A stretch of DNA of 43,331 nt. Origin: a virus. Where the stretch lies: IMG/VR virus record IMGVR_UViG_3300044856_000108, positions 1-43,331 of that record. One strand, 5' to 3'. This document shows, one piece after another, positions 1-43,331 of the stretch. The position numbers and the translations under genes were made by a program. The number at the start of each line of letters is the position of its first letter. Position 1 is the first letter of the stretch. The notes under the pieces were generated by a model, which ran no database searches, had not been told where the DNA came from, and saw only the letters and a list, made by a program, of their open reading frames with translations.

Positions 1-929
1 TCGCCGCTGCTTCCGATTTTGGCGGAGTCGCCGCTGCTTCCGATTTGGGCGTAGTTGCCGCTGCTTCCGATTTGGGCGTAGTCGCCGCTGCTTCCGATTT
101 TGGCGGAGTCGCCGCTGCTTCCGATTTTGGCGGAGTCGCCGCTGCTTCCGATTTTGGCGGAGTCGCCGCTGCTTCCGATTTGGGCGTAGTTGCCGCTGCT
201 TCCGATTTGGGCGTAGTTGCCGCTGCTTCCGATTTGGGCACGGTCGCCGCTGCTTCCGATTTTGGCGGAGTCGCCAGAACTGTTGTTAGTGCCTTTAATC
301 TTATTCGGGGAGGTTGCCTCTTTGAGCCACTCAACCCCGATATTTATAAGGTCTGCAAGCTTCAGCTCTGCCTTCACCTTAATTTTCGACGAGCAGACCT
401 TTGTGCTTTTTTCATCGTCTTCTCGGTCGATTTTCCCGGATTGCTCCACCTCGCAGAATCGAGATGTCAGCATGTCGTAGTGGTCGAACACCTCAAAGGG
501 GTTTTCGCATGCGTGGAAGCCTTGCTGGCAGCATTTGATTTCACCATCGAATTCATACTCTTTGCCGACCTCGTACTGGAAGCCGCGGCAGCATAGGTTC
601 TTGTCGAACCCCTTGTAGCTTTTGATTATATCACTCATAATTTTCTTTTTTGTTTGATTGTTCCTTTCAAGTTCAACTTCTTTGCAAAGTTTTGCAAGTT
701 CAGCCCTTGCGGCTATAAGTTGGTCTCTAACAACGTCATATTCTTTATTCTTCTCTTGTCGCTGTTTTTCCACAAAGAGAATGTGCATATCGTCATAGGT
801 GATTGTGAAACCACCGCCGTTTGGAACTATTGCACACTCAAAGCCGTTGTGCATGATTGCCGTCAATACTTCATTAAGAATATCACCAGAGATGAAAATT
901 TTTCTGGGACATTTACCACCAACTGCCAT
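1..929 (-). CDS. 5' part of a tandem-repeat protein: Cys-rich N-terminal domain followed by 9-aa repeats of the SGDSAKIGS type. The ORF runs off the window start and resumes at the window end.
   Basis: My manual minus-strand translation is open from the ATG at 927-929, which lies 2 nt after the stop of the upstream gene, down to position 1. An in-frame alternative ATG lies at 636-638 and gives MSDIIKSYKGFDKNLCCRGFQYEVGKEYEFDGEIKCCQQGFHACENPFEVFDHY... The repeats start after ...KGTNNSSG at about 272. The ORF track omits this ORF because it has no stop inside this end of the window. Confidence 0.75.
   Translation of the reverse strand, partial: MAVGGKCPRKIFISGDILNEVLTAIMHNGFECAIVPNGGGFTITYDDMHILFVEKQRQEKNKEYDVVRDQLIAARAELAKLCKEVELERNNQTKKKIMSDIIKSYKGFDKNLCCRGFQYEVGKEYEFDGEIKCCQQGFHACENPFEVFDHYDMLTSRFCEVEQSGKIDREDDEKSTKVCSSKIKVKAELKLADLINIGVEWLKEATSPNKIKGTNNSSGDSAKIGSSGDRAQIGSSGNYAQIGSSGNYAQIGSSGDSAKIGSSGDSAKIGSSGDSAKIGSSGDYAQIGSSGNYAQIGSSGDSAKIGSSG
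3..272. repeat. 27-bp perfect-register tandem repeat, 10 units, coding
   Basis: The unit is gccgctgcttccgatt(t)tgg(c)g(g/t)ag(tc/tt). Variants seen here encode DSAK, NYAQ, DYAQ and DRAQ followed by IGSSG on the minus strand. Confidence 0.95.
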
Positions 930-1205: not shown

Positions 1206-1742
1206 TCATTTTGTTCTGTCCATTGTTTTTTCAAGTTCGTTTGTGCTGGCCTCGTAGAGGGGATTGATTTTCTCCTCCAGGGCGGCCTGTATCTTAGAGT
1301 ATTCCGAAAGCTGGCGGCTGCCGAAGCACCGCTCCATTCCGGAGAGCACTTGTTTGCACGCCTTTTTCAGGGTGTCAACATCGTCCACGAGGTCGTAGCC
1401 CTCGGCGGTGTGGGTCGTGCGCTCCATGTACTCTGCGAAGTCGAGTGAGAGGCCGTTGGCGTAGTCACACGCCATCATAACTTTCAGAACCATGCGGTAC
1501 ATCTCACGCTGTTCGGCCTTTACCTTGGCTTGAAATTCCTCTATCTTGCCGTCAACTAAGCGCATCTGAGCCTTTGCCCTTTGCTCCGCCTCGGCCAGTC
1601 CGCAGGCGGAGAACGCCTTTATCTGCATCGCCAGCTTTTCCTTTGCCCGGTGGTAGCCGTCGAGGTAGTCCTTGCTGGTCGCCCCGGTCACTTCCGGGGT
1701 GATGTCTTCAACGTTGAATGTTTTTGGGATTTCAATCTTCAT
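1206..1742 (-). CDS. hypothetical protein, helical or coiled-coil in character
   Basis: 178-aa ORF whose start overlaps the upstream gene stop in an ATGA-type junction at 1739-1742. Confidence 0.6.
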   Translation of the reverse strand: MKIEIPKTFNVEDITPEVTGATSKDYLDGYHRAKEKLAMQIKAFSACGLAEAEQRAKAQMRLVDGKIEEFQAKVKAEQREMYRMVLKVMMACDYANGLSLDFAEYMERTTHTAEGYDLVDDVDTLKKACKQVLSGMERCFGSRQLSEYSKIQAALEEKINPLYEASTNELEKTMDRTK

Positions 1743-1951: not shown

Positions 1952-2683
1952 TTACTTTGTCAATTCCATAACAAGCCCCTTGTGCGCGGCGTAGGCCGGT
2001 TTCCCTGTCGCTTGCCGCACCGCGTCGCAGAACTGCTCCGGGTCTGCATTGCGCGCGCTTAAATGCACCAGCACCACCTCCTTCACGTCGGTAATGTCGT
2101 TGGCTCGCAGAATGCCCAGCGTCGTGTCCAGCTCCATGTGTGAATGCAGTAGGCGGTCTTTGGTCGCCACCGGCGTAACACCGTCCATGATGTTGCCGTT
2201 CAGCACTCTGTCGGAGTAGTTGGCCTCAAGCATGAGGTGGTTCACGCCGGCTGGCAGCTTGTATTCAAGCATCATGGTGTCAGTTACGAACACCAGCCGT
2301 CCGAGCTCTGCGTGCTCGATGATGTAGGCCACGCAGGGCACATCGTGCGCAACAGGAATAGGGTACACCTTGAAGCCGCCCACCTTGTACCACTTCATCG
2401 GCTCTATCTCCTTGCAGAAAGCCTTGCATTTGACTTTCTTGGCTTGAAATACGTCGGGCAGGGCAAGCACGTTGATGCCTCGCTCCAGAAACTTGTCAAG
2501 GAACTTGGCATGGTCGCCGTGCCTGTGGCTGACGACGCAGCCCACAATCTCCGACAAGTGCCAGTTGACGGCTTCCATCACTTGCTGGAAGTCAACGCCG
2601 CACTCGATTACGAGTGACTCCTCTGAACCTTGCAGCACATAGCAGTTGCCGCTGCTTCCGCTGCCCAAACACCGCAAAACCAT
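1952..2683 (-). CDS. MBL-fold metallo-hydrolase, a likely nuclease partner of the recombinase
   Basis: N-terminus is LGSGSSGNCYVL and the HxHxDH motif is present as SHRHGDHAKF. It lies immediately downstream of the RecT-like gene. Confidence 0.85.
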   Translation of the reverse strand: MVLRCLGSGSSGNCYVLQGSEESLVIECGVDFQQVMEAVNWHLSEIVGCVVSHRHGDHAKFLDKFLERGINVLALPDVFQAKKVKCKAFCKEIEPMKWYKVGGFKVYPIPVAHDVPCVAYIIEHAELGRLVFVTDTMMLEYKLPAGVNHLMLEANYSDRVLNGNIMDGVTPVATKDRLLHSHMELDTTLGILRANDITDVKEVVLVHLSARNADPEQFCDAVRQATGKPAYAAHKGLVMELTK

Positions 2684-3673: not shown

Positions 3674-5635
3674 TTAATTTATAGTCAAATCTGTGTCCGC
3701 AACATAGAGCCTCACTTGCTGGCTCTCGGTGTCGAGCGGCTGGAGCACACCCTCCGCGTTGTCGATGAAAATCGGCGCGCTGATGCCCTCAAATTGGCAG
3801 ATGGCATTGATGATGTCGAGGCCGCAGTTTATCTGCTTCGCGCTGTTAAGCGAGGAGTAGGGCACGCCGTCAACCGTGGCCTCGCAGGTTTCCACTTCGC
3901 CGCCGTTGATTTGCGTGTCGAACATCTTGAATTTCACGAACTTGAACATTCCGTTTATTCGTGCCTCTACCGCGCTGATTTTCGCCTTTTGGAAACTCTG
4001 GATTGTGAAGTCGGTGCGTTCATAGCCGGCCAGCTCGTCATTGAGCGTGCGCATCTGCTTCTTCAGCTCCTCGATGCGTGCGTTGTTGCGCTCGATGATT
4101 TCCTTTGTGGCGAGCTTTGCCTTGATTTCGTCGATTTCACCGAGCAGGGCTTTCTTGTCGTCTTTGAGCCCGGTGTTGCTGTCGTCGGTAGAGGACTGGC
4201 CGAGCAGCTTCAGCTCGTCCTCTTTACCGGCAATGGCCTTGAGCGTGCTCTGGTATTCCTCATCGGCCGCCAGCTCGCTTGACACAAGCGATTGGTCGGG
4301 CTTCACGATGTCCTCCGAGTAGAGAGGCTGCGCTTCGATTTCTTTGATTTTGCCGTGGATTTCAGCTTGCTCCTTGCCGTATTCGTCGAGGGCGGTCTGC
4401 AAGCCGTCGAGTTGCTTCTTCACGCCCTGTCCCTCACTCACGTTGCGCTCCAAGTCCTTTGCCTTGCGGCCGTTGAACTCTGCGAGCATTTCCGCTTGGC
4501 GGCTCTCGATGTCGTCAACATCGAGCGGCCTCTTGCAAGTCGGGCAGATGAAATCCTTGTCGTCGAACACCAGCTTGCGGTCGTTAATCTCGTGCCACTG
4601 CGCAATCAGCCGCTCGCGCTGCTCCGCCAAGTTCTTGATTTCCTTTTCGGCGTTTTTCGCATTGTAGGCAATGTTACTGGCTTGCGTCTTGAGCTCGCCC
4701 ACTTGCATCTTGAGCCTCGTCTGCTCGGAGTGCCGATTATGGTAGTTTTGGAACACTTTCCCCTCCGCCTTTATCTCGGCCTTTGCCTTGCTTTCCTTTA
4801 GCGCGGCCAGCTCTTTGGTGATGGCGATTTTGCGCTCCGCAAGCTCATTCACGGCCTTGGCCTTGTCTTGCAGCATTCCGTCAATCTTGTCAACTTGCTT
4901 CTGCTTCATCGCAAGCTCGGTGCTGAGTGCCGCATAGTCCAGAGGCTCCGGAGTGTCGCGCTTGCGCTCGTCGATGCGCTCCGGTATGCCGTCAATCTCG
5001 GCTTTCACGTTGCGCTTCTTGGCGGCGATTTCACGCTTGTACTCATCGAGCGTCTTGCCGGTCAGATTGGCGAGCAGCCGCGTGAAGTCGGCGTTGCCGG
5101 CCGCCACGTCGCTGTCGGTTATCCCACCGGCCATGCGCACCAGCATTGCCCTTAGCGTGTCGGGCTTCTGCGCCACGAAATAGCTTGGCGAGGTTATGAA
5201 CTTGAACACCTGCTCGGAGCAGAGCCCCGAAATCTTCTCGCCCCAGTCCTTGACCGACATTGGCACGTCGTTGTAGAGCCTTTCCTCCTCGTGCCCCGTG
5301 AACTCCTCCTCGGTAGCTCCGCGGCGCTTCACCCACTTCTCCTTGTAGCGTCGGCAGAGCTTGATTTCCTCGCCGTCCACGTCGAGGAGCAGCGTCACCT
5401 CGTGCGGAAGCCTTGCTATAGGCTTGCCGTCAGCCCCGATTGTCTTGATGTCGAAAGTCTTGCGGTCGTGGCTATCCTTACCGAAGAGCACCCATGTAAA
5501 GGCGTCGAAAATCGTAGTCTTTCCGCTTCCGTTGCGCCCGGTGATTTTGGTTAGATTTTGACCAAAATCAACACTCATGCTCCGTATGCCCTTGAAGTTC
5601 GTCAAGGCCATTGATTTGATTTTGATTTTTTTCAT
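3674..5635 (-). CDS. Rad50/SbcC-like AAA ATPase with a central zinc hook
   Basis: Walker A is GRNGSGKTT at the N-terminus. A long coiled-coil middle carries CPTC (DFICPTCKRPL, encoded at about 4535-4546). The C-terminal IFIDNAEGV resembles a Walker B and D-loop. Confidence 0.8.
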   Translation of the reverse strand: MKKIKIKSMALTNFKGIRSMSVDFGQNLTKITGRNGSGKTTIFDAFTWVLFGKDSHDRKTFDIKTIGADGKPIARLPHEVTLLLDVDGEEIKLCRRYKEKWVKRRGATEEEFTGHEEERLYNDVPMSVKDWGEKISGLCSEQVFKFITSPSYFVAQKPDTLRAMLVRMAGGITDSDVAAGNADFTRLLANLTGKTLDEYKREIAAKKRNVKAEIDGIPERIDERKRDTPEPLDYAALSTELAMKQKQVDKIDGMLQDKAKAVNELAERKIAITKELAALKESKAKAEIKAEGKVFQNYHNRHSEQTRLKMQVGELKTQASNIAYNAKNAEKEIKNLAEQRERLIAQWHEINDRKLVFDDKDFICPTCKRPLDVDDIESRQAEMLAEFNGRKAKDLERNVSEGQGVKKQLDGLQTALDEYGKEQAEIHGKIKEIEAQPLYSEDIVKPDQSLVSSELAADEEYQSTLKAIAGKEDELKLLGQSSTDDSNTGLKDDKKALLGEIDEIKAKLATKEIIERNNARIEELKKQMRTLNDELAGYERTDFTIQSFQKAKISAVEARINGMFKFVKFKMFDTQINGGEVETCEATVDGVPYSSLNSAKQINCGLDIINAICQFEGISAPIFIDNAEGVLQPLDTESQQVRLYVADTDLTIN

Positions 5636-9418: not shown

Positions 9419-9862
9419 ATGCTAAACGAAAATTTTTACATATCTCTTAAAAAATTTTTCAAAGACCAAAATATTACGCAGCAACAGGTTGCATACAAAC
9501 TGGGAACGTCGCAGGCTTATGTTAATTCGATATTAACAGGACGCAACCCGATAGGTCGTCAGACGGCTGCAAAGCTGTCGGCTGCCTACGGTCTCAGTGC
9601 GGCATGGTTGTTGACAGGCGAGGGTGAGATGCTGGCCACAAGCCACGGCAGCGTGAACCACATAAGCATAGATGCTGGCAGTCGGATAAATGCCACCGGG
9701 GGCAGTTCGGTGAGCAACGTGGGCAACGTTGCGCAGGGCACGGCGGCAGACACAACCACGGTTGACAAGCTGATAGGCGTGATGACACGCCAGCAGGAGC
9801 AGATGTCGCACCAGCAGGAGCAGATAGACCAGTTAATCCAAATTCTAAAAGATAAGCTATGA
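9419..9862 (+). CDS. XRE-type HTH regulator, a candidate prophage repressor
   Basis: ITQQQVAYKLGTSQAYVNSILTGRNPIGRQTAAKLSAAYGLSAAWLLTGEGEM. It is the first plus-strand gene of the lysogeny module. Confidence 0.75.
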   Translation: MLNENFYISLKKFFKDQNITQQQVAYKLGTSQAYVNSILTGRNPIGRQTAAKLSAAYGLSAAWLLTGEGEMLATSHGSVNHISIDAGSRINATGGSSVSNVGNVAQGTAADTTTVDKLIGVMTRQQEQMSHQQEQIDQLIQILKDKL

Positions 9863-10200
9863 AAGAAAACACAAACCGGGGCGATTGCGAGGGCTATGAA
9901 AGGCTGCTCGACCGCTTCGCCCAGATGCTGCTCCTCAGCGAGCAGCGCATCGACAAGACCAATGCCATGATTGAGAAACTCGTGGACGTGACAGAAAGCA
10001 TAAGCGAGAAGTACATGACCCACATCGACAGCCTTGCGGAGTGCCGCACACGGCTGCTTGACGAGGTGAGCTCGTTAACGCGCCAGCTCATCGCCGAGCG
10101 GCAGCGCAACACGGAGCTGGTTGACCACCTCATCTCGCTCACCATGACAGGGCTGGCGAGCGGCAATGCCGCCAACCACATCAGCGTGAACCACACATGA
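9859..10200 (+). CDS. hypothetical coiled-coil protein
   Basis: 113-aa ORF with overlapping junctions to both neighbours (ATGA-type at 9859-9862 and at 10197-10200). Confidence 0.55.
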   Translation: MKENTNRGDCEGYERLLDRFAQMLLLSEQRIDKTNAMIEKLVDVTESISEKYMTHIDSLAECRTRLLDEVSSLTRQLIAERQRNTELVDHLISLTMTGLASGNAANHISVNHT

Positions 10201-10697
10201 GGGCGGAGGGATTGATTAAGGACAAGGATAAAGCAATGACAACAACGACAACAACAGAAATTAATGAAAGACTGGCGCAGCTCGTGGACCACATGACCGG
10301 GGGGCGGCAAGGCCGCTTCGCAGCTATGGTAGGCTGGTCTCCACAATACCTCGGCAATCTGCTCAAAGGGGCGAGCGGCATCGGCATAAACCCGGTGGTG
10401 ACTCTGCTGGAGCGGTTTCCCGACCTCAACGCCCGGTGGCTTCTGCTGGGCGAGGGGGCTATGTTCACCACGCCCCCCGGCTACAAGCTCCGCCAGCGGC
10501 TCATCAAGCTGCTGGAGGTGGAACGTTACACCCCGGTGATGTCGCCCTCGGAGCTGCGCAAGGCGGAGGAGGGGCGTGTGGATTTCCCGGCCGAGACGGT
10601 GAGCCGGTGGCGCGCCGAAATGGCTCGTCTGACAGCACCGAGATGTATCAAGCCGCAGCCAAAAAGTGTAAAAAACGTGCATACCCCACAAGGGTAG
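10197..10697 (+). CDS. second HTH regulator, paralogous motif
   Basis: FAAMVGWSPQYLGNLLKGASGIGINPVVTLLERFPDLNARWLLLGEGAMF shares the WLLxGEG tail with the 9419 protein. Confidence 0.65.
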   Translation: MRAEGLIKDKDKAMTTTTTTEINERLAQLVDHMTGGRQGRFAAMVGWSPQYLGNLLKGASGIGINPVVTLLERFPDLNARWLLLGEGAMFTTPPGYKLRQRLIKLLEVERYTPVMSPSELRKAEEGRVDFPAETVSRWRAEMARLTAPRCIKPQPKSVKNVHTPQG

Positions 10698-10801: not shown

Positions 10802-10955
10802 CTGAAAATTAGGCGTTTGCTTGTTGATAAAGAACGCCACATAATTGACCTGTCGCGGAAAATACCCCATATTTTATTGCATTTTGGTTGCATTTGGTTA
10901 CATTTAGCTATATTTAGTTTCACAATAACGTGCAAAAAACGTGCACACTGAAAAC

Positions 10956-12140
10956 ATGAAAATCTCATACTATCTTGACAAAAGAAATGGCGGCAGAGTG
11001 TCGCCGCTCAAAATCGCAATTCGGAAGCATGGAGCAACTGCTTTCTTGCCAACTGGCATCAGCCTTGAAGCCGGACAGTGGGACGCTGTGGCGCAACGTG
11101 TCGTGAAGCACCCATTGCGTAATGCGTACAACTCATTCCTGCTTCACCGATACCTCGACGTGTCGGAAGCAGTGCTTGCGGTGCAGCATAAGCCGCTGCA
11201 AGAAATAAAAGCATACTTGGCCGCAAAGTTCTGCGAGGCGGCTCACGGCAAGCCGAGCAGCAAGCAGTCGTTCGTGGCTTTCTTTCGTTCGTTCATAGCC
11301 ACACGCAACAGGGTGCGAACTCGGTCAATCTATAACAACACGTTATCGCTGCTGCACCAATGGTGTCCGACGCTTGGCAGCATCTCGTTCGACGACGTGA
11401 CAAAGCAGTGGATTGAGGCGTTTGACCGCTGGTGCGACGTGGAGCGAGGAAATGCCATCAACACGAGGGCTATTCACTTGCGCAATATCCGTGCGGTGTT
11501 CAATGCGGCAATCGACGAGGGCGTGACGACGAGCTATCCGTTCCGCCGTCTGAAAATTAAAAATGCGGCGACTGCCAAGAGAGCCTTGTCAGTGTCTGAC
11601 TTATGCCGATTGTTTGCCGCTGCACCCACTTTCCAGCGTGGGTGGTGGGCAAAAGATGTCTTTCAGTTAATGGTGTATCTGCGTGGTATAAGTTTTATCG
11701 ACTTGTCGAACCTCACGCCCTCCGACGTGTCGGCTGGGCGCATCAGCTATCGTCGTGCGAAGACAGGAAGATTGTATGATGTGAAAATCGAGCCGGAGGC
11801 AGCGGCCATAATTGACCGCTTACACTCCACGTCGGGGAAATACCTGCTCAATATCCTTGACCGCTATTCAACCTACCGAGTTGCCAATTATGCGTGCAAC
11901 GTTGAGCTGCACCGGCTGCTGCCCGACGTGACGAGCGTGACGACCTATTGGGCGCGACACACTTGGGCTACGATTGCCGCTGAGCTTGACATTCCGAAAG
12001 AAACAATAGCGGCCGGGCTGGGGCATGGTCAGAAGAGCGTGACGGACATTTACATCGACTTTGACAGCCAAAAGGTTGATGACGCAAATCGCAAAATCAT
12101 TGACTATGTGAACGAGATGATGAGGAATTTGGAGAAATAA
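10956..12140 (+). CDS. int: tyrosine recombinase (phage integrase with an N-terminal arm-binding type domain)
   Basis: MKISYYLDKRNGG... at the N-terminus. Catalytic-region patterns are YLRGISFIDL, WARHTWATI and LGHGQKSVTDIYID. Confidence 0.9.
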   Translation: MKISYYLDKRNGGRVSPLKIAIRKHGATAFLPTGISLEAGQWDAVAQRVVKHPLRNAYNSFLLHRYLDVSEAVLAVQHKPLQEIKAYLAAKFCEAAHGKPSSKQSFVAFFRSFIATRNRVRTRSIYNNTLSLLHQWCPTLGSISFDDVTKQWIEAFDRWCDVERGNAINTRAIHLRNIRAVFNAAIDEGVTTSYPFRRLKIKNAATAKRALSVSDLCRLFAAAPTFQRGWWAKDVFQLMVYLRGISFIDLSNLTPSDVSAGRISYRRAKTGRLYDVKIEPEAAAIIDRLHSTSGKYLLNILDRYSTYRVANYACNVELHRLLPDVTSVTTYWARHTWATIAAELDIPKETIAAGLGHGQKSVTDIYIDFDSQKVDDANRKIIDYVNEMMRNLEK

Positions 12141-27556: not shown

Positions 27557-27628
27557 TAGCGGAGGGCGGATTCGAACCGCCGACCTTTAGGTCATGAGCC
27601 TAACGAGCTGCCACTGCTCCACTCCGCA
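27557..27628 (-). tRNA. tRNA-Met (anticodon CAT) with initiator-like features
   Basis: The manual cloverleaf is U-GCGGAG/UG/GAGC-AGUGGCA-GCUC/G/UUAGG-CUCAUGA-CCUAA/AGGUC/GGCGG-UUCGAAU-CCGCC/CUCCGC-U/A. Confidence 0.85.
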
Positions 27629-38268: not shown

Positions 38269-39849
38269 TTACTCTGTTTCACTCTCTGAACCCGTCTCGC
38301 CCGATTCAGTCTTTGACAGGTCTTCTTCGGTGTACTCAATCTTCGGGAACTCTTTCTTGATTTGCTTTGGGTCGCCCTTGAAAAAGACAAGGACGTTCTG
38401 GTGCATTTTTGCGACTTTGCGTGTGTCCATCGTGCGCCCTGCTCGCATAGCTGTCGAGGCGGCAGGCTCCACAAGGATAAGCTCATTGTAGAGGCTCATT
38501 CCGCCAGCGGCGAAGATGCGCTTTATATCGCCACAAAAATCGTAGTAAAATCCAGTGCGCTTATCCCTTACGTCACCAACGACGATGACGGCGAAGCGGT
38601 TTTCTTTCAAACAGCCAATGGCTGCTGTGAACGCATTGCGGAGTATCATCATAAACTCCTCGTAAGAGCCTTGGTTGCTCGCATCGTTGGGGAGGTCAGA
38701 GTACTTTTCGAGGTCGAAGTACGGCGGACACGAGAAAAGGAGGTCTTGACTCTCGGACTCAATGTGCTGCGCCACGTTCTGGCCGTCGTCGCAGATATAC
38801 CGAGCCGTCATTCCGGCAGCACGCCTGTTATTCAAAGTCGCTTGCTCCTTTCTCAGTTCAATGCCCACAAAGTCATGTCCGACGTAAGCGGACACAAATC
38901 CGAATACGCTGTCGCCGGCGAAGCAATCGAACACCTTTGCCCCCTTAGCTGGGGTGAACCACTTGCAGATTATCTCCGAAAGCACCGGGTCGAGTAGCGA
39001 GACACCTTTTGCAAGCACTTTGCTTGCGGCTCGCTCTTTAACATCGTCTGAGACATACTTGTCGAGGTATTCCTTGAACGACACTCCGAGCTGCTCTCTT
39101 TGCGTTCGCGACTGTTTATAAATCTCCTTATACTTGATTTCTGGTGATTGTATAAGTGTGTCTTGACGGCTCTCTCCCATATCGCCAATTATCCCTCGCC
39201 ATAGCCTCTTTCTCGACTGCCAATACCCCTTTCTTGTGTCAAGCACGGAAAACGGCGGAATGACAAATCGGTCACAAAGAGAACCATAGGTCTGGCTGCT
39301 ACCCTCTGCGGCAGTTCCTCCGGCTTCCTTGCTCTCACATTCATTCTTGCCAGCGCTGCCGTCTTTAACGTCCCAGTTCCACAAGTCCAGTCCCCAGTCC
39401 TCAAGCTGTGGCGTGTCCCAGTCGTTGGCAAGGGCATCGTAATCCCATTGGCCGAAGCTCACGTTGTCCTTTATGATGAACTGCCGCCGCTCGCTCTCTG
39501 TAAGTGTGCTGCCGTCAATGACTGCCACTGTCGGAGATTGCAGCCAGTTGCCCCAGTATTCGACTAACCTCTGCTTCTCGTCGTGCGCACTTGCGGCATA
39601 CTCCGGGGTGGAGGCCAGCCGCTGCGCGACCTCGTCGGGAGACATCTTCGCAATGGCCTGCAACGCATTGAGCCGCATATTGCCACCGAGTGCCGTAAGC
39701 TGGCCGTCAACGACAACAGGGCGGATTGCAAGCATCTCTGGGAAGACGAGCAGTGAGTTCACCAGCTTCTGGAACTTGTCTTTTGAAATTGTGCGAGGAT
39801 TCGCCTTGTTGATTTTGACCTGCGAGAGCTTCAGTGAGGTTGTGTTCAT
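38269..39849 (-). CDS. ParB-like N-terminal domain fused to a DNA methyltransferase (N6A/N4C type)
   Basis: IRPVVVDGQLTALGGNMRLNAL is the ParB GxxR box. VFDCFAGDSVFG is motif I and FSCPPYFDLE is motif IV. I prefer the ATG at 39849 (MNTTSLK) because a TAnnTTTG box lies at 39868-39875. Confidence 0.8.
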   Translation of the reverse strand: MNTTSLKLSQVKINKANPRTISKDKFQKLVNSLLVFPEMLAIRPVVVDGQLTALGGNMRLNALQAIAKMSPDEVAQRLASTPEYAASAHDEKQRLVEYWGNWLQSPTVAVIDGSTLTESERRQFIIKDNVSFGQWDYDALANDWDTPQLEDWGLDLWNWDVKDGSAGKNECESKEAGGTAAEGSSQTYGSLCDRFVIPPFSVLDTRKGYWQSRKRLWRGIIGDMGESRQDTLIQSPEIKYKEIYKQSRTQREQLGVSFKEYLDKYVSDDVKERAASKVLAKGVSLLDPVLSEIICKWFTPAKGAKVFDCFAGDSVFGFVSAYVGHDFVGIELRKEQATLNNRRAAGMTARYICDDGQNVAQHIESESQDLLFSCPPYFDLEKYSDLPNDASNQGSYEEFMMILRNAFTAAIGCLKENRFAVIVVGDVRDKRTGFYYDFCGDIKRIFAAGGMSLYNELILVEPAASTAMRAGRTMDTRKVAKMHQNVLVFFKGDPKQIKKEFPKIEYTEEDLSKTESGETGSESETE

Positions 39850-39935
39850 AGTTTGTGCGTTTTTGCGCAAAAATACACTAATTTGTTTACATATTAGGCG
39901 TTTATATCAAAAAAACGCATTAAAACGTGTAAAAA

Positions 39936-42539: not shown

Positions 42540-42625
42540 TTTTTTACAGTTCTTTAAAAATTGGAAAGTTTTAGAATAAAGTGATTAATGTCTTGTCCGT
42601 CTCAACTCCGAGAATGAAGTCGTTA

Positions 42626-42700
42626 ATAAAATTCCTTGCATATAGCGGTGTAATCCTCTCCGCTTATAGCTCCGCTGATGTAAACCGTCTTTTGGCTCAT
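42626..42700 (-). CDS. 24-aa ORF, a possible truncated remnant
   Basis: MSQKTVYISGAISGEDYTAICKEFY, with its ATG overlapping the repeat-protein stop as ATGA. It resembles the N-terminus of longer nucleoside-deoxyribosyltransferase-like proteins but stops early. Confidence 0.2.
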
Positions 42701-43331
42701 AGCGCGTCAACCTCCTTGAACTCTCCGTCAACCAGCCTATACCACGTGTCTGCCTTGATGCGCTCGCCGTCAACAAACTCTGTTTTGACGCACTTTGGAA
42801 CCAAATGGTCTTTTTCATCGTTATACTCCCATTCAGCCAGTGTTATCCACGAACCTACTTTGGCTTTGACCGCAGAGTTATGGCCTGCGCACATTATCAC
42901 GGAATCCTTGCCGCTGCTTCCGATTTTGGCGGAGTCGCCGCTGCTTCCGATTTTGGCGGAGTCGCCGCTGCTTCCGATTTGGGCGTAGTTGCCGCTGCTT
43001 CCGATTTGGGCGTAGTCGCCGCTGCTTCCGATTTTGGCGGAGTCGCCGCTGCTTCCGATTTGGGCGTAGTCGCCGCTGCTTCCGATTTGGGCGTAGTTGC
43101 CGCTGCTTCCGATTTGGGCGGAGTCGCCGCTGCTTCCGATTTTGGCGGAGTTGCCGCTGCTTCCGATTTGGGCACGGTCGCCGCTGCTTCCGATTTTGGC
43201 GGAGTCGCCGCTGCTTCCGATTTTGGCGGAGTCGCCGCTGCTTCCGATTTGGGCGTAGTTGCCGCTGCTTCCGATTTGGGCGTAGTCGCCGCTGCTTCCG
43301 ATTTTGGCGGAGTCGCCGCTGCTTCCGATTT
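42697..43331 (-). CDS. 3' part of the same tandem-repeat protein: repeats followed by a 67-aa C-terminal domain.
   Basis: The frame that gives ...DSAKIGSSGKDSVIMCAGHNSAVKAKVGSWITLAEWEYNDEKDHLVPKCVKTEFVDGERIKADTWYRLVDGEFKEVDAL with stop at 42697-42699 is the same frame as the listed ORF 42697..42900. It stays open through the repeats to 43331. It joins the frame of 1..929 exactly if the ends overlap by 19 or 46 nt. Confidence 0.75.
   Translation of the reverse strand, partial: IGSSGDSAKIGSSGDYAQIGSSGNYAQIGSSGDSAKIGSSGDSAKIGSSGDRAQIGSSGNSAKIGSSGDSAQIGSSGNYAQIGSSGDYAQIGSSGDSAKIGSSGDYAQIGSSGNYAQIGSSGDSAKIGSSGDSAKIGSSGKDSVIMCAGHNSAVKAKVGSWITLAEWEYNDEKDHLVPKCVKTEFVDGERIKADTWYRLVDGEFKEVDAL
42910..43331. 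repeat. Same 27-bp tandem repeat, 15 full units plus a 17-nt partial unit at the window end
   Basis: Unit order read from the sequence is DSAK, DSAK, NYAQ, DYAQ, DSAK, DYAQ, NYAQ, DSAQ, NSAK, DRAQ, DSAK, DSAK, NYAQ, DYAQ, DSAK. Units 1-5 have the same pattern as units 11-15, which is a higher-order repeat. Confidence 0.95.

Follow-up and report, generated by a model that had tools for sequence, protein, structure and literature searches.

The question raised by the locus described here is what kind of protein is encoded by an early gene of a temperate phage, the middle part of which is made up of near-identical 27-nt tandem repeats, and what such a protein might do. The gene lies in IMG/VR record IMGVR_UViG_3300044856_000108, analysed over its whole stretch of 43,331 nt (positions 1 to 43,331; hereafter the window). 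An original prediction, made from the sequence alone, described a Cys-rich head, about 25 repeats of nine residues and a small C-terminal domain. According to our profile comparisons the product is an ordinary member of a catalogued family, i.e. DUF7666 / PHROG 4433, and we give a probability of roughly 0.5 to its being an early, dispensable host-interaction or counter-defence factor with a head resembling the C-terminal domain of phage T4 rIIB.

One gene divided by the ends of a circular assembly

The feature is a single minus-strand gene, which the ends of a circular assembly divide into a 5′ part running from 638 to 1 and a 3′ part running from 43331 to 42697, both on the minus strand. The open reading frame (ORF) starting at the ATG at 636-638 encodes MSDIIKSYKGFDKNLCCRGF..., i.e. 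the head quoted in the original prediction, and the tandem 27-nt units, encoding [D/N][S/Y/R]A[K/Q]IGSSG, begin at residue 123. At the right end of the window the frame carries on through 15 further units, followed by a domain of about 70 aa and a stop codon. With a period of 27, Tandem Repeats Finder (TRF) counted 10.2 copies over 1-275 and 15.6 over 42910-43331. The parts of the gene and its immediate surroundings are as follows.

Positions 273 to 638, minus strand: 5′ end of the gene, residues 1-122, with start codon ATG at 636-638 (translation)
Positions 342 to 626, minus strand: DUF7666 head domain, residues 5-99 (Pfam PF24703)
Residues 94 to 122, minus strand: helix and low-confidence linker after the head (AlphaFold2 secondary structure)
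Positions 1 to 272, minus strand: first part of the array, 10 complete units of 27 nt (9 aa) plus 2 nt, leaving the window at its left end (TRF, unit list)
Positions 42910 to 43331, minus strand: second part of the array, 17 nt of a partial unit and 15 units, of which 43205-43331 duplicates 1-127 (TRF, unit list)
Positions 42700 to 42909, minus strand: C-terminal domain of about 70 aa (KDSVIMCAG...GEFKEVDAL), with the stop codon at 42697-42699 (translation)
Positions 1 to 127, no strand: terminal overlap, identical to 43205-43331 and also to 42935-43061
Positions 639 to 929, minus strand: ORF of 97 aa reading in frame into the ATG at 638, with no family assignable
Positions 660 to 1205, no strand: AT-rich segment, boundaries approximate (composition profile, alignment to relative L087, synteny in relatives L086-L089)

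Translation of both gene halves bore out the three-part architecture of head, repeats and C-terminal module, the latter having been put at 67 aa. Of the location proposed at 1-929, only the 5′ part of the gene stands, the remaining array and the C-terminal domain being found at 42697-43331.

The first 127 nt of the window are exactly identical to the last 127 nt (43205-43331), and a terminal overlap of exactly k is what is usually seen where a k=127 assembly has yielded a circular contig. The window is such a contig, opened inside the coding tandem array, and the true circle measures 43,204 bp. After collapsing the overlap, a single gene of 381 aa with 21 units remains. The 24-25 near-identical repeats counted previously are repeats indeed, while their number was too high because the overlap had been entered twice, so that four units were counted double. 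Since the terminal 127-mer is present a third time inside the array, at 42935-43061, the number of passes through a 10-unit block is not fixed by the k-mer graph; 11, 21 or 31 units all fit the k-mers, i.e. the copy number is not fixed by this assembly. The predicted higher-order pattern is seen as an exact repeat of 152 nt within the array at an offset of 270 nt, and the six predicted unit variants (DSAK, DRAQ, NYAQ, DYAQ, NSAK and DSAQ) were found as well, with differences only at unit nt 1, 4-6 and 10.

Membership in the DUF7666 / PHROG 4433 family

The head matched positions 1-94 of the 95 positions of the Pfam profile DUF7666 (PF24703) over residues 5-99 with 116.6 bits (E 7e-34; gathering score 27 bits), and the same label is found on relatives in the protein database. 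PHROG 4433, to which no function is assigned, matched both the 5′ half of the gene (E 1.7e-48, profile positions 10-215 of 312) and the 3′ half (E 4e-10, positions 132-311), thus covering head, repeats and tail, and the tail alone additionally matched PHROG 27197 (E 3e-18). A protein whose family could not be named before can thus be named as a member of DUF7666 / PHROG 4433, i.e. of a family that itself carries no assigned function; a well-known family with an assigned function did not emerge.

The family is very large and widely distributed, i.e. an exhaustive HMMER scan yielded 4640 clusters at 50% identity (E<1e-3), and its members are spread over phages of Proteobacteria, Bacteroidota, Firmicutes and cyanobacteria. 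By tblastn of GenBank phages the head was found in 178 records, including Salmonella phage ES18 (gp53), Pseudomonas Hollowayvirus and Vibrio, Acinetobacter, Ralstonia, Rheinheimera, Blautia and Pseudanabaena phages, as well as Bacteroides phage BF1-TP2 (73% identity). All translated examples show the same order of a head, n units of 9 aa and a conserved tail; period-9 repeats were present in 92 of the 111 family representatives of at least 190 aa, and period 8 in a few lineages. ES18 gp53, also DUF7666 / PHROG 4433, shares with the window gene its architecture, its early accessory position and its variable copy number, while the unit consensus differs, being xxA[KQ]IGSSG in the window and TG[DNY]xSAA[TS]N in proteobacterial phages.

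Residues K9, C17, G25, C37, G40, F41, H42, C44, P47, Y54 and G68 of the head are near-invariant, the invariance of G40 and H42 being partly produced by the selection pattern used to collect the sequences. The paired Cys residues named as a feature of the head are thus only half retained: the doubling is not conserved, whereas one Cys of each pair is near-invariant, together with H42 and C44. This C17/C37/H42/C44 pattern, which gives the globular head domain its near-invariant signature C...C-x2-G-F-H-x-C, would fit a CCHC zinc site or an active site.

A literature search on the family, its repeat and ES18 gp53 returned nothing relevant, and the gene is not mentioned in two Rheinheimera phage papers. 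The variable diresidue, the YdhT module and the rIIB-like head described below, on none of which that search found a paper, are possibly new at the family level.

Relationship of the head to phage T4 rIIB

We compared the AlphaFold2 (AF2) model of a close relative with three units (P0005, hereafter the short model) with the structures in BFVD using Foldseek. Besides many DUF7666 proteins, including some of giant viruses, the search returned three rIIB entries (E 6e-4, 8e-4 and 7e-3), aligned with a root-mean-square deviation of 5.8 Å over 120 columns for the first and of about 3 Å over 103-112 columns for the other two. Residues ~205-305 of T4 rIIB are colinear with DUF7666, i.e. they show [YW]K, C, F[DQ]xxxGK and C-x2-G-[FL]-H-x-C in the same succession. 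An hhalign comparison of 139 diverse DUF7666 domains with ten sequences of the rIIB C-terminal domain (rIIB-C) gave P 0.003 over 42 columns, with a score of 22.1 against 11.6±2.7 for a column-shuffle null, reached by one of 150 shuffles. The DUF7666 hidden Markov model (HMM) matched T4 rIIB-C at P 2.9e-5 and seven of the ten rIIB-C sequences at P<=1e-3; of 1383 unrelated ORFs serving as decoys, one was found at P<=1e-3 and none at P<=1e-4. The DUF7666 head and the T4 rIIB C-terminal domain, the latter labelled PF26926 in the protein database, are therefore probably homologous and, according to the Foldseek comparison with BFVD, probably have the same fold.

rIIB is an early protein of T-even phages that is needed to overcome RexAB, by a mechanism that is unknown; its expression is toxic, and it sets off a CARD/gasdermin defence system (PMC10312443). 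T4 rIIB is an early, dispensable phage protein, as the members of the family of the window gene appear to be. They differ in their arrangement: in rIIB the domain is C-terminal, after a region resembling a helix-turn-helix (HTH), with no repeat array, and the protein works together with rIIA, whereas in the window protein the rIIB-like domain is N-terminal. If the link is true, simple temperate-phage systems, such as ES18 and SEN22 in Salmonella, could be used for studying the rIIB C-terminal domain.

Among the giant-virus matches in BFVD, those of Hyperionvirus and Sylvanvirus are labelled DUF7666, and weaker matches, i.e. mimivirus R267 and proteins of Megavirus, Moumouvirus and Tupanvirus, are annotated as ankyrin-repeat proteins. 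If these share the same head domain, the head would be paired with repeat scaffolds of several kinds in widely differing viruses.

The repeat and tail module

The NCBIfam model of YdhT (NF007410) matched the repeats and tail of ES18 gp53 (E 3e-13, 49.8 bits) as well as a shortened window construct (E 2e-9, 37.3 bits), of which only the repeat plus C-terminal module aligned. In Escherichia coli K-12, YdhT (b1669, ydhYVWXUT operon) contains about 14 degenerate units of the form [DNEY]-x-[AS]-[RQH]-[IV]-[GA]-S-x-G, followed by the same tail. The 9-residue repeat and the C-terminal cap (...V.Y.L....F.E) are therefore homologous in the two proteins, while the E. coli protein, likewise uncharacterised, differs by its unrelated N-terminal region, its degenerate repeats and its chromosomal location in an oxidoreductase operon. 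Because the same repeat pattern and tail are found in YdhT, the module represents an old protein fold, of which the phage version is non-degenerate and recently homogenised. Identity with YdhT over the whole protein was rejected, since the scores of 37.3 and 49.8 bits compare with an equivalog cut-off of 300 and the N-terminal regions differ.

The short model (mean predicted local distance difference test score, pLDDT, 77) shows a beta-rich head, then a helix, and a confident tail. For the joined window protein (mean pLDDT 74), each unit was predicted as a strand of six residues (x2-A-K-I-G-S) and a turn of three (S-G-x1), with a pLDDT of ~67-78, and the C-terminal domain as degenerate continuing repeats with a beta-hairpin cap (pLDDT ~90). 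Foldseek searches of both models against PDB gave nothing significant (best E 0.95 and 1.2), nor did a profile search of PDB sequences give any match; the top of the non-significant PDB list for the long model consisted of beta-helices, i.e. GlmU, NeuO, pectate lyase, VacA and HxuA. A solenoid-like array, as anticipated from the repeat pattern, is thus plausible, with moderate confidence.

A further 9-residue, Gly-rich period made of a strand and a turn is known from the RTX nonapeptide beta-roll (GGxGxDxUx). In contrast to RTX proteins, the window unit has no conserved Asp at position 6 and its hydrophobic residue is shifted, and the protein is cytoplasmic, early and without a secretion signal. 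Calcium-binding RTX repeats were therefore rejected, i.e. the unit [DNY]xA[KQ]IGSSG misses the consensus and no HemolysinCabind match was obtained at E<=1.

Gain and loss of whole units

Array length changes strongly between close relatives. The nearest ones, with heads 89% identical to that of the window and neighbouring proteins 89-97% identical, have only 1-3 units, as compared with the 21 units of the window assembly, by which the count is not fixed. Among 77 IMG/VR relatives, complete arrays ranged from 2 to ~24 units (median 11), and 22 of the relative contigs end within the array. Even phages with identical head DNA and a 1.5-kb upstream flank of 99.9-100% identity carried 14, 11 and 6 units, or 19 and 13 units. 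The same is seen in Salmonella phages, whose genes are more than 90% identical and encode 219 aa in S107 (~4-5 units), 282 aa in ES18 (~11-12 units) and 381 aa in SEN22 (~22-23 units). Copy number had been expected to vary, and the range from 1 to ~24 units among relatives strongly supports this; an invariant number in related genomes was not what we found. Frameshifted or shortened copies also occur, i.e. in Emek (frameshift), in BF1-TP2 and in several metagenome proteins.

Judging by these comparisons, the array evolves by gain and loss of whole 27-nt units, so that the reading frame is kept. In an evolution experiment with Serratia symbiotica, one clone gained a deletion of 54 bp (2 x 27) in 'ydhT_1', a gene located in a mitomycin-inducible prophage (PMC12505973). 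We infer that this gene belongs to the family, and array length probably also changes on laboratory time scales.

A family of thousands of clusters thus possesses an array that changes length between near-identical phages and breaks short-read assemblies. Many linear GenBank phage records begin or end in or beside the gene, among them those of Pseudomonas phages vB_Pae_BR319b, BR320a, CF24a and PSA04, of Salmonella phage UPF_BP1 and of Ralstonia phages Raharianne, Firinga and Albius. Assemblies are routinely opened at the repeat array, and record ends in the gene are artefacts. The contigs of relatives L086-L089 all end 10-45 nt past the stop codon of their 1-unit DUF7666 gene; something at the site matching window ~42540-42696 thus breaks assemblies as well and perhaps represents a strain-variable junction.

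Two further observations concern unit numbers. Complete arrays with fewer than nine strict units showed only even counts (2, 4, 6 and 8; 16 arrays; IMG/VR loci L006-L085), which could reflect relatedness or a constraint of two units per coil; arrays of 9-19 units had both parities, and single-unit and three-unit arrays are found in the protein database as well. In Prevotella sp. oral taxon 376 F0043 (accession number NZ_PYXG01000001), two identical homologues with 17 units lie ~90 kb apart, at ~1.97 and ~2.06 Mb, and could belong to two prophages or to a duplicated region.

Constraint and diversity within the units

For the analysis of the units, 743 units from 77 arrays were compared. In six codons (A, I, G, S, S and G) the amino acid is effectively invariant (G6 ~92%, S8 ~93%) and synonymous changes are frequent. 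Diversity is found at three other codons: codon 1 is AAC, TAC or GAC (N, Y or D) in near-equal thirds, codon 2 encodes G, Y, D, S or N, and codon 4 is AAG or CAG (K or Q) at ~50:50. Synonymous sites differed by 0.10 between units of the same array and by 0.51 between arrays, which is concerted evolution with homogenisation inside the array and supports the recombination-prone locus suggested by the original prediction. The variable sites differed by 0.44 within and by 0.58 between arrays.

In 54 diverse arrays with differing unit consensus, the most variable adjacent pair was the dipeptide after the conserved Gly in most cases, and the first residue of this pair was D, Y or N in about two thirds of the units. 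In the AF2 secondary structure the variable diresidue lies at the junction of turn and strand, with unit residue 1 in the turn and the K/Q two residues after the pair; residues 2 and 4 would accordingly lie on one face of the strand, and Ala3 and Ile5 on the other. The pattern shows protein-level constraint combined with diversity maintained at a surface ladder; a pair of residues that stays variable family-wide inside otherwise homogenised arrays is the signature of a tunable binding surface.

Start codon and an upstream AT-rich insertion

The ORF at 929-639 joins the gene in frame, with no stop codon between them, as had been predicted for an optional N-terminal extension of 97 aa. The segment at ~660-1205 shows a GC content of 33-41%, as compared with 51-62% in its flanks, and these ~520-550 bp have no counterpart in the nearest relatives (synteny in L086-L089, alignment with L087), in which a gene of 174-183 aa, homologous to window 1206-1742, immediately precedes the DUF7666 gene. 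Only ~20 nt upstream of the ATG at 638 are common to the window and L087, and the alignment of the latter shows an in-frame stop eight codons upstream of the ATG. Because all relatives begin at MSDIIKSYKGF, the ATG at 638 appears to be the ancestral start, and the extension, missing from the nearest relatives, stems from the AT-rich insertion. A fused product starting at 929, if it exists, would be a recent accident of this insertion.

Two small minus-strand ORFs are carried by the insertion, i.e. 639-929 (97 aa), which no longer ends in a stop codon and continues in frame into the DUF7666 gene, and 932-1129 (65 aa), which has a weak JetB/MukE-like PADLOC match (E 9.5e-6) and a match to PHROG 31233.

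Possible functions of the protein

The reading that we favour, i.e. an early, dispensable host-interaction or counter-defence factor, starts from the position of the gene in a long minus-strand early operon. Upstream of it lie genes for a DnaD-like initiator, an SbcC-like ATPase, RecT and a metallo-beta-lactamase (MBL) fold hydrolase, and downstream of it those for a Holliday-junction resolvase and a ParB-methyltransferase, which confirms the early, non-structural setting proposed before. The gene looks dispensable, as suggested by its early-left or early accessory position and by the frameshifted and truncated copies in Emek, BF1-TP2 and metagenome proteins, and behaves as a self-contained accessory module. 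In such a factor, most likely acting early in infection, the head would act as an effector or anchoring module, and the solenoid as a rod of adjustable length on which variable residues form a ladder facing a partner that evolves rapidly, while unequal recombination between units would retune both the length and the surface of the rod.

Several points weigh against this reading. For no family member has a function been established by experiment, the literature search found no paper mentioning DUF7666, and PADLOC reported no defence-system match for the window protein or ES18 gp53. The link to rIIB is modest at the sequence level, with an hhalign probability of only 10%; DUF7666 is absent from the Pfam matches of T4 rIIB, one decoy family reaches P 9e-5 with the reverse HMM, and the mechanism of rIIB is itself unknown. 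Among the neighbours at 87 loci there is no rIIA-like gene, and no neighbouring gene is conserved across lineages, the neighbours being lineage-specific only. Furthermore, AF2 gives the array, modelled as a single chain, no more than moderate confidence, and part of the diversity at the three sites could stem from relaxed constraint on exposed residues instead of positive selection.

Of the alternatives, the one that survives best, itself unlikely, is a prophage-encoded sensor for superinfection exclusion or abortive infection, in which the repeat ladder would recognise proteins of incoming phages and the head would be a toxic effector. It would agree with the toxicity of rIIB expression (PMC10312443). 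Hypervariable repeat surfaces are typical of sensors, the carrier phages are temperate and the gene is often found near the immunity region, in SEN22 even adjoining a gene annotated 'superinfection exclusion'; the family is, however, also present in the lytic Rheinheimera Barba phages, and PADLOC finds no known defence family. Moreover, the gene of ES18, S107 and Emek is flanked by antiterminator N/24 and by cIII/kil, i.e. it lies downstream of N in the PL operon, and the lambdoid PL operon is repressed in lysogens.

It is rather improbable that the head is an enzyme, i.e. a minimal ADP-ribosyltransferase (ART)-like or Cys/His-dependent modifier that the repeats target or space. A homologue in an Acinetobacter phage is annotated 'putative ADP-ribosyltransferase', the head possesses near-invariant Cys, His and Lys residues, and weak PARP-like structures appeared in the PDB searches, with 2x5y as the best match of the first (E 0.95) and 6hxr in 37th place in the second (E 6.1). 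These matches are, however, far from significant (probability <=0.2, template modelling score ~0.2), no ART family is found in Pfam even at E<=1, and the four near-invariant C/C/H/C residues fit a structural zinc site at least equally well.

It is tempting to speculate, although we consider it a long shot, that the array is a programmable recognition scaffold, in which each unit would add its diresidue, together with the K/Q, to a straight ladder on the beta-solenoid. Unit by unit, such a ladder would read the subsites of a target that is periodic or linear, for instance a nucleic acid, a glycan or a filamentous protein of the host or of a defence system. The model for this is the reading of one subsite per unit by pentatricopeptide repeat (PPR) and transcription activator-like (TAL) effector proteins. 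As in TAL-effector repeats, near-identical units differ mainly at a variable diresidue and their copy number shifts by recombination; the likeness is an analogy only, as TAL units are helical and 34 aa long, in contrast to the 9-aa beta-strand units found here, and no relationship in sequence or fold exists. Unequal recombination of the 27-nt units would then reprogram length as well as specificity, and the rIIB-like head would deliver the effect. If this were true, the family would give a way into the long-unsolved mechanism of rIIB.

A decoy and a filament, both named as possibilities in the original prediction, are guesses at present. Quite doubtful is an element that would assemble itself into a cytoskeleton-like structure or scaffold, as bactofilins do, with a length set by the repeat number. 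The solenoid-like model and the variable length of the rod would suit such an element, whereas conserved N- and C-terminal caps, as they appear to be present here, would normally block end-to-end stacking, no bactofilin match was obtained in Pfam, and the occurrence of 1 to ~24 units in near-identical phages contradicts a length-critical ruler.

A role of the 27-bp repeats as DNA, e.g. as iterons, a pac site or a recombination site, with an incidental coding frame, is very unlikely, because the units show protein-level constraint with diversity kept at the variable sites. Near-identical direct repeats in a replication and recombination region would be in line with such a role, but between arrays the synonymous sites diverge and the amino-acid pattern is kept, other phyla and chromosomal YdhT show the 9-aa period and the motif on unrelated DNA, and the origin of replication of ES18 is annotated separately. 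Finally, a collagen-like or tail-fibre structural protein can practically be dismissed, since the Pfam Collagen score of the 3′ half (PF01391; 37 bits, cut-off 27.2) and the weak matches to several PHROG tail-fibre families are composition-driven, the unit being G-x-x-G-x-x-A-x-x with Ala instead of Gly at the start of every third triplet and no Pro, AF2 predicting beta-strands instead of a triple helix, and the gene lying in the early region, far from the tail genes.

Misleading annotations of homologues

Homologues carry several misleading product names, i.e. 'flagellar hook-length control protein', 'c-type lectin precursor', 'pentapeptide' and 'putative ADP-ribosyltransferase'. The annotation as C-type lectin would suggest a variable protein of a diversity-generating retroelement (DGR). 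This was rejected, since Foldseek gave no CLec match and variation, unlike adenine-specific DGR mutagenesis, spares the adenines at unit nt 2, 11 and 13 and affects nt 1, 4, 5 and 10; no reverse transcriptase was found among those window ORFs that were scanned, i.e. a part of them. Pentapeptide repeats, annotated in homologues of Rheinheimera phages, were rejected as well, the period being 9 and not 5 aa and no Pentapeptide match being obtained in Pfam. In Vibrio phage 1.185.O (accession number MG592551), four 'CRISPR spacers' are annotated at 3869-4086 within the homologous gene. They are coding 27-nt repeats, and a CRISPR array was rejected accordingly, as the 'spacers' sit inside the coding tandem array. 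Annotations of homologues as 'CRISPR', 'collagen', 'pentapeptide' or 'C-type lectin' are thus artefacts.

Phage, host and neighbouring genes

The window phage is temperate, with an integrase at 10941-12140 and HTH repressors at 9419-9862 and 10197-10697. Its relatives are found in Prevotella and other Bacteroidales. Because close relatives lie in genomes of Prevotella sp. oral taxon 376 and P. vespertina, and Segatella copri proteins share the label, the host probably belongs to the Bacteroidales and is of the Prevotella or Segatella type. No GenBank phage was matched by megablast with 19.7 kb of the window. The gene is found downstream of cI on the same strand in Acinetobacter and Pseudomonas phages.

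A scan for terminators and promoters around the 3′ end of the gene remained at chance level. The Rfam scan of the window reported only a tRNA, outside the gene, i.e. at 27557-27628 on the minus strand in the region of the structural genes (RF00005, 63.5 bits). The MBL-fold hydrolase of the early operon (1952-2683, minus strand; PHROG 392) adjoins RecT, and the precomputed Pfam labels of a homologue with 95% identity include a weak match to the Anti-Pycsar protein Apyc1, so that it could be a cyclic-nucleotide-degrading anti-defence enzyme. In the same operon, 38269-39870 on the minus strand encodes a ParB-like nuclease N-terminal region fused to a DNA methyltransferase (PHROG 498, E 7e-121).

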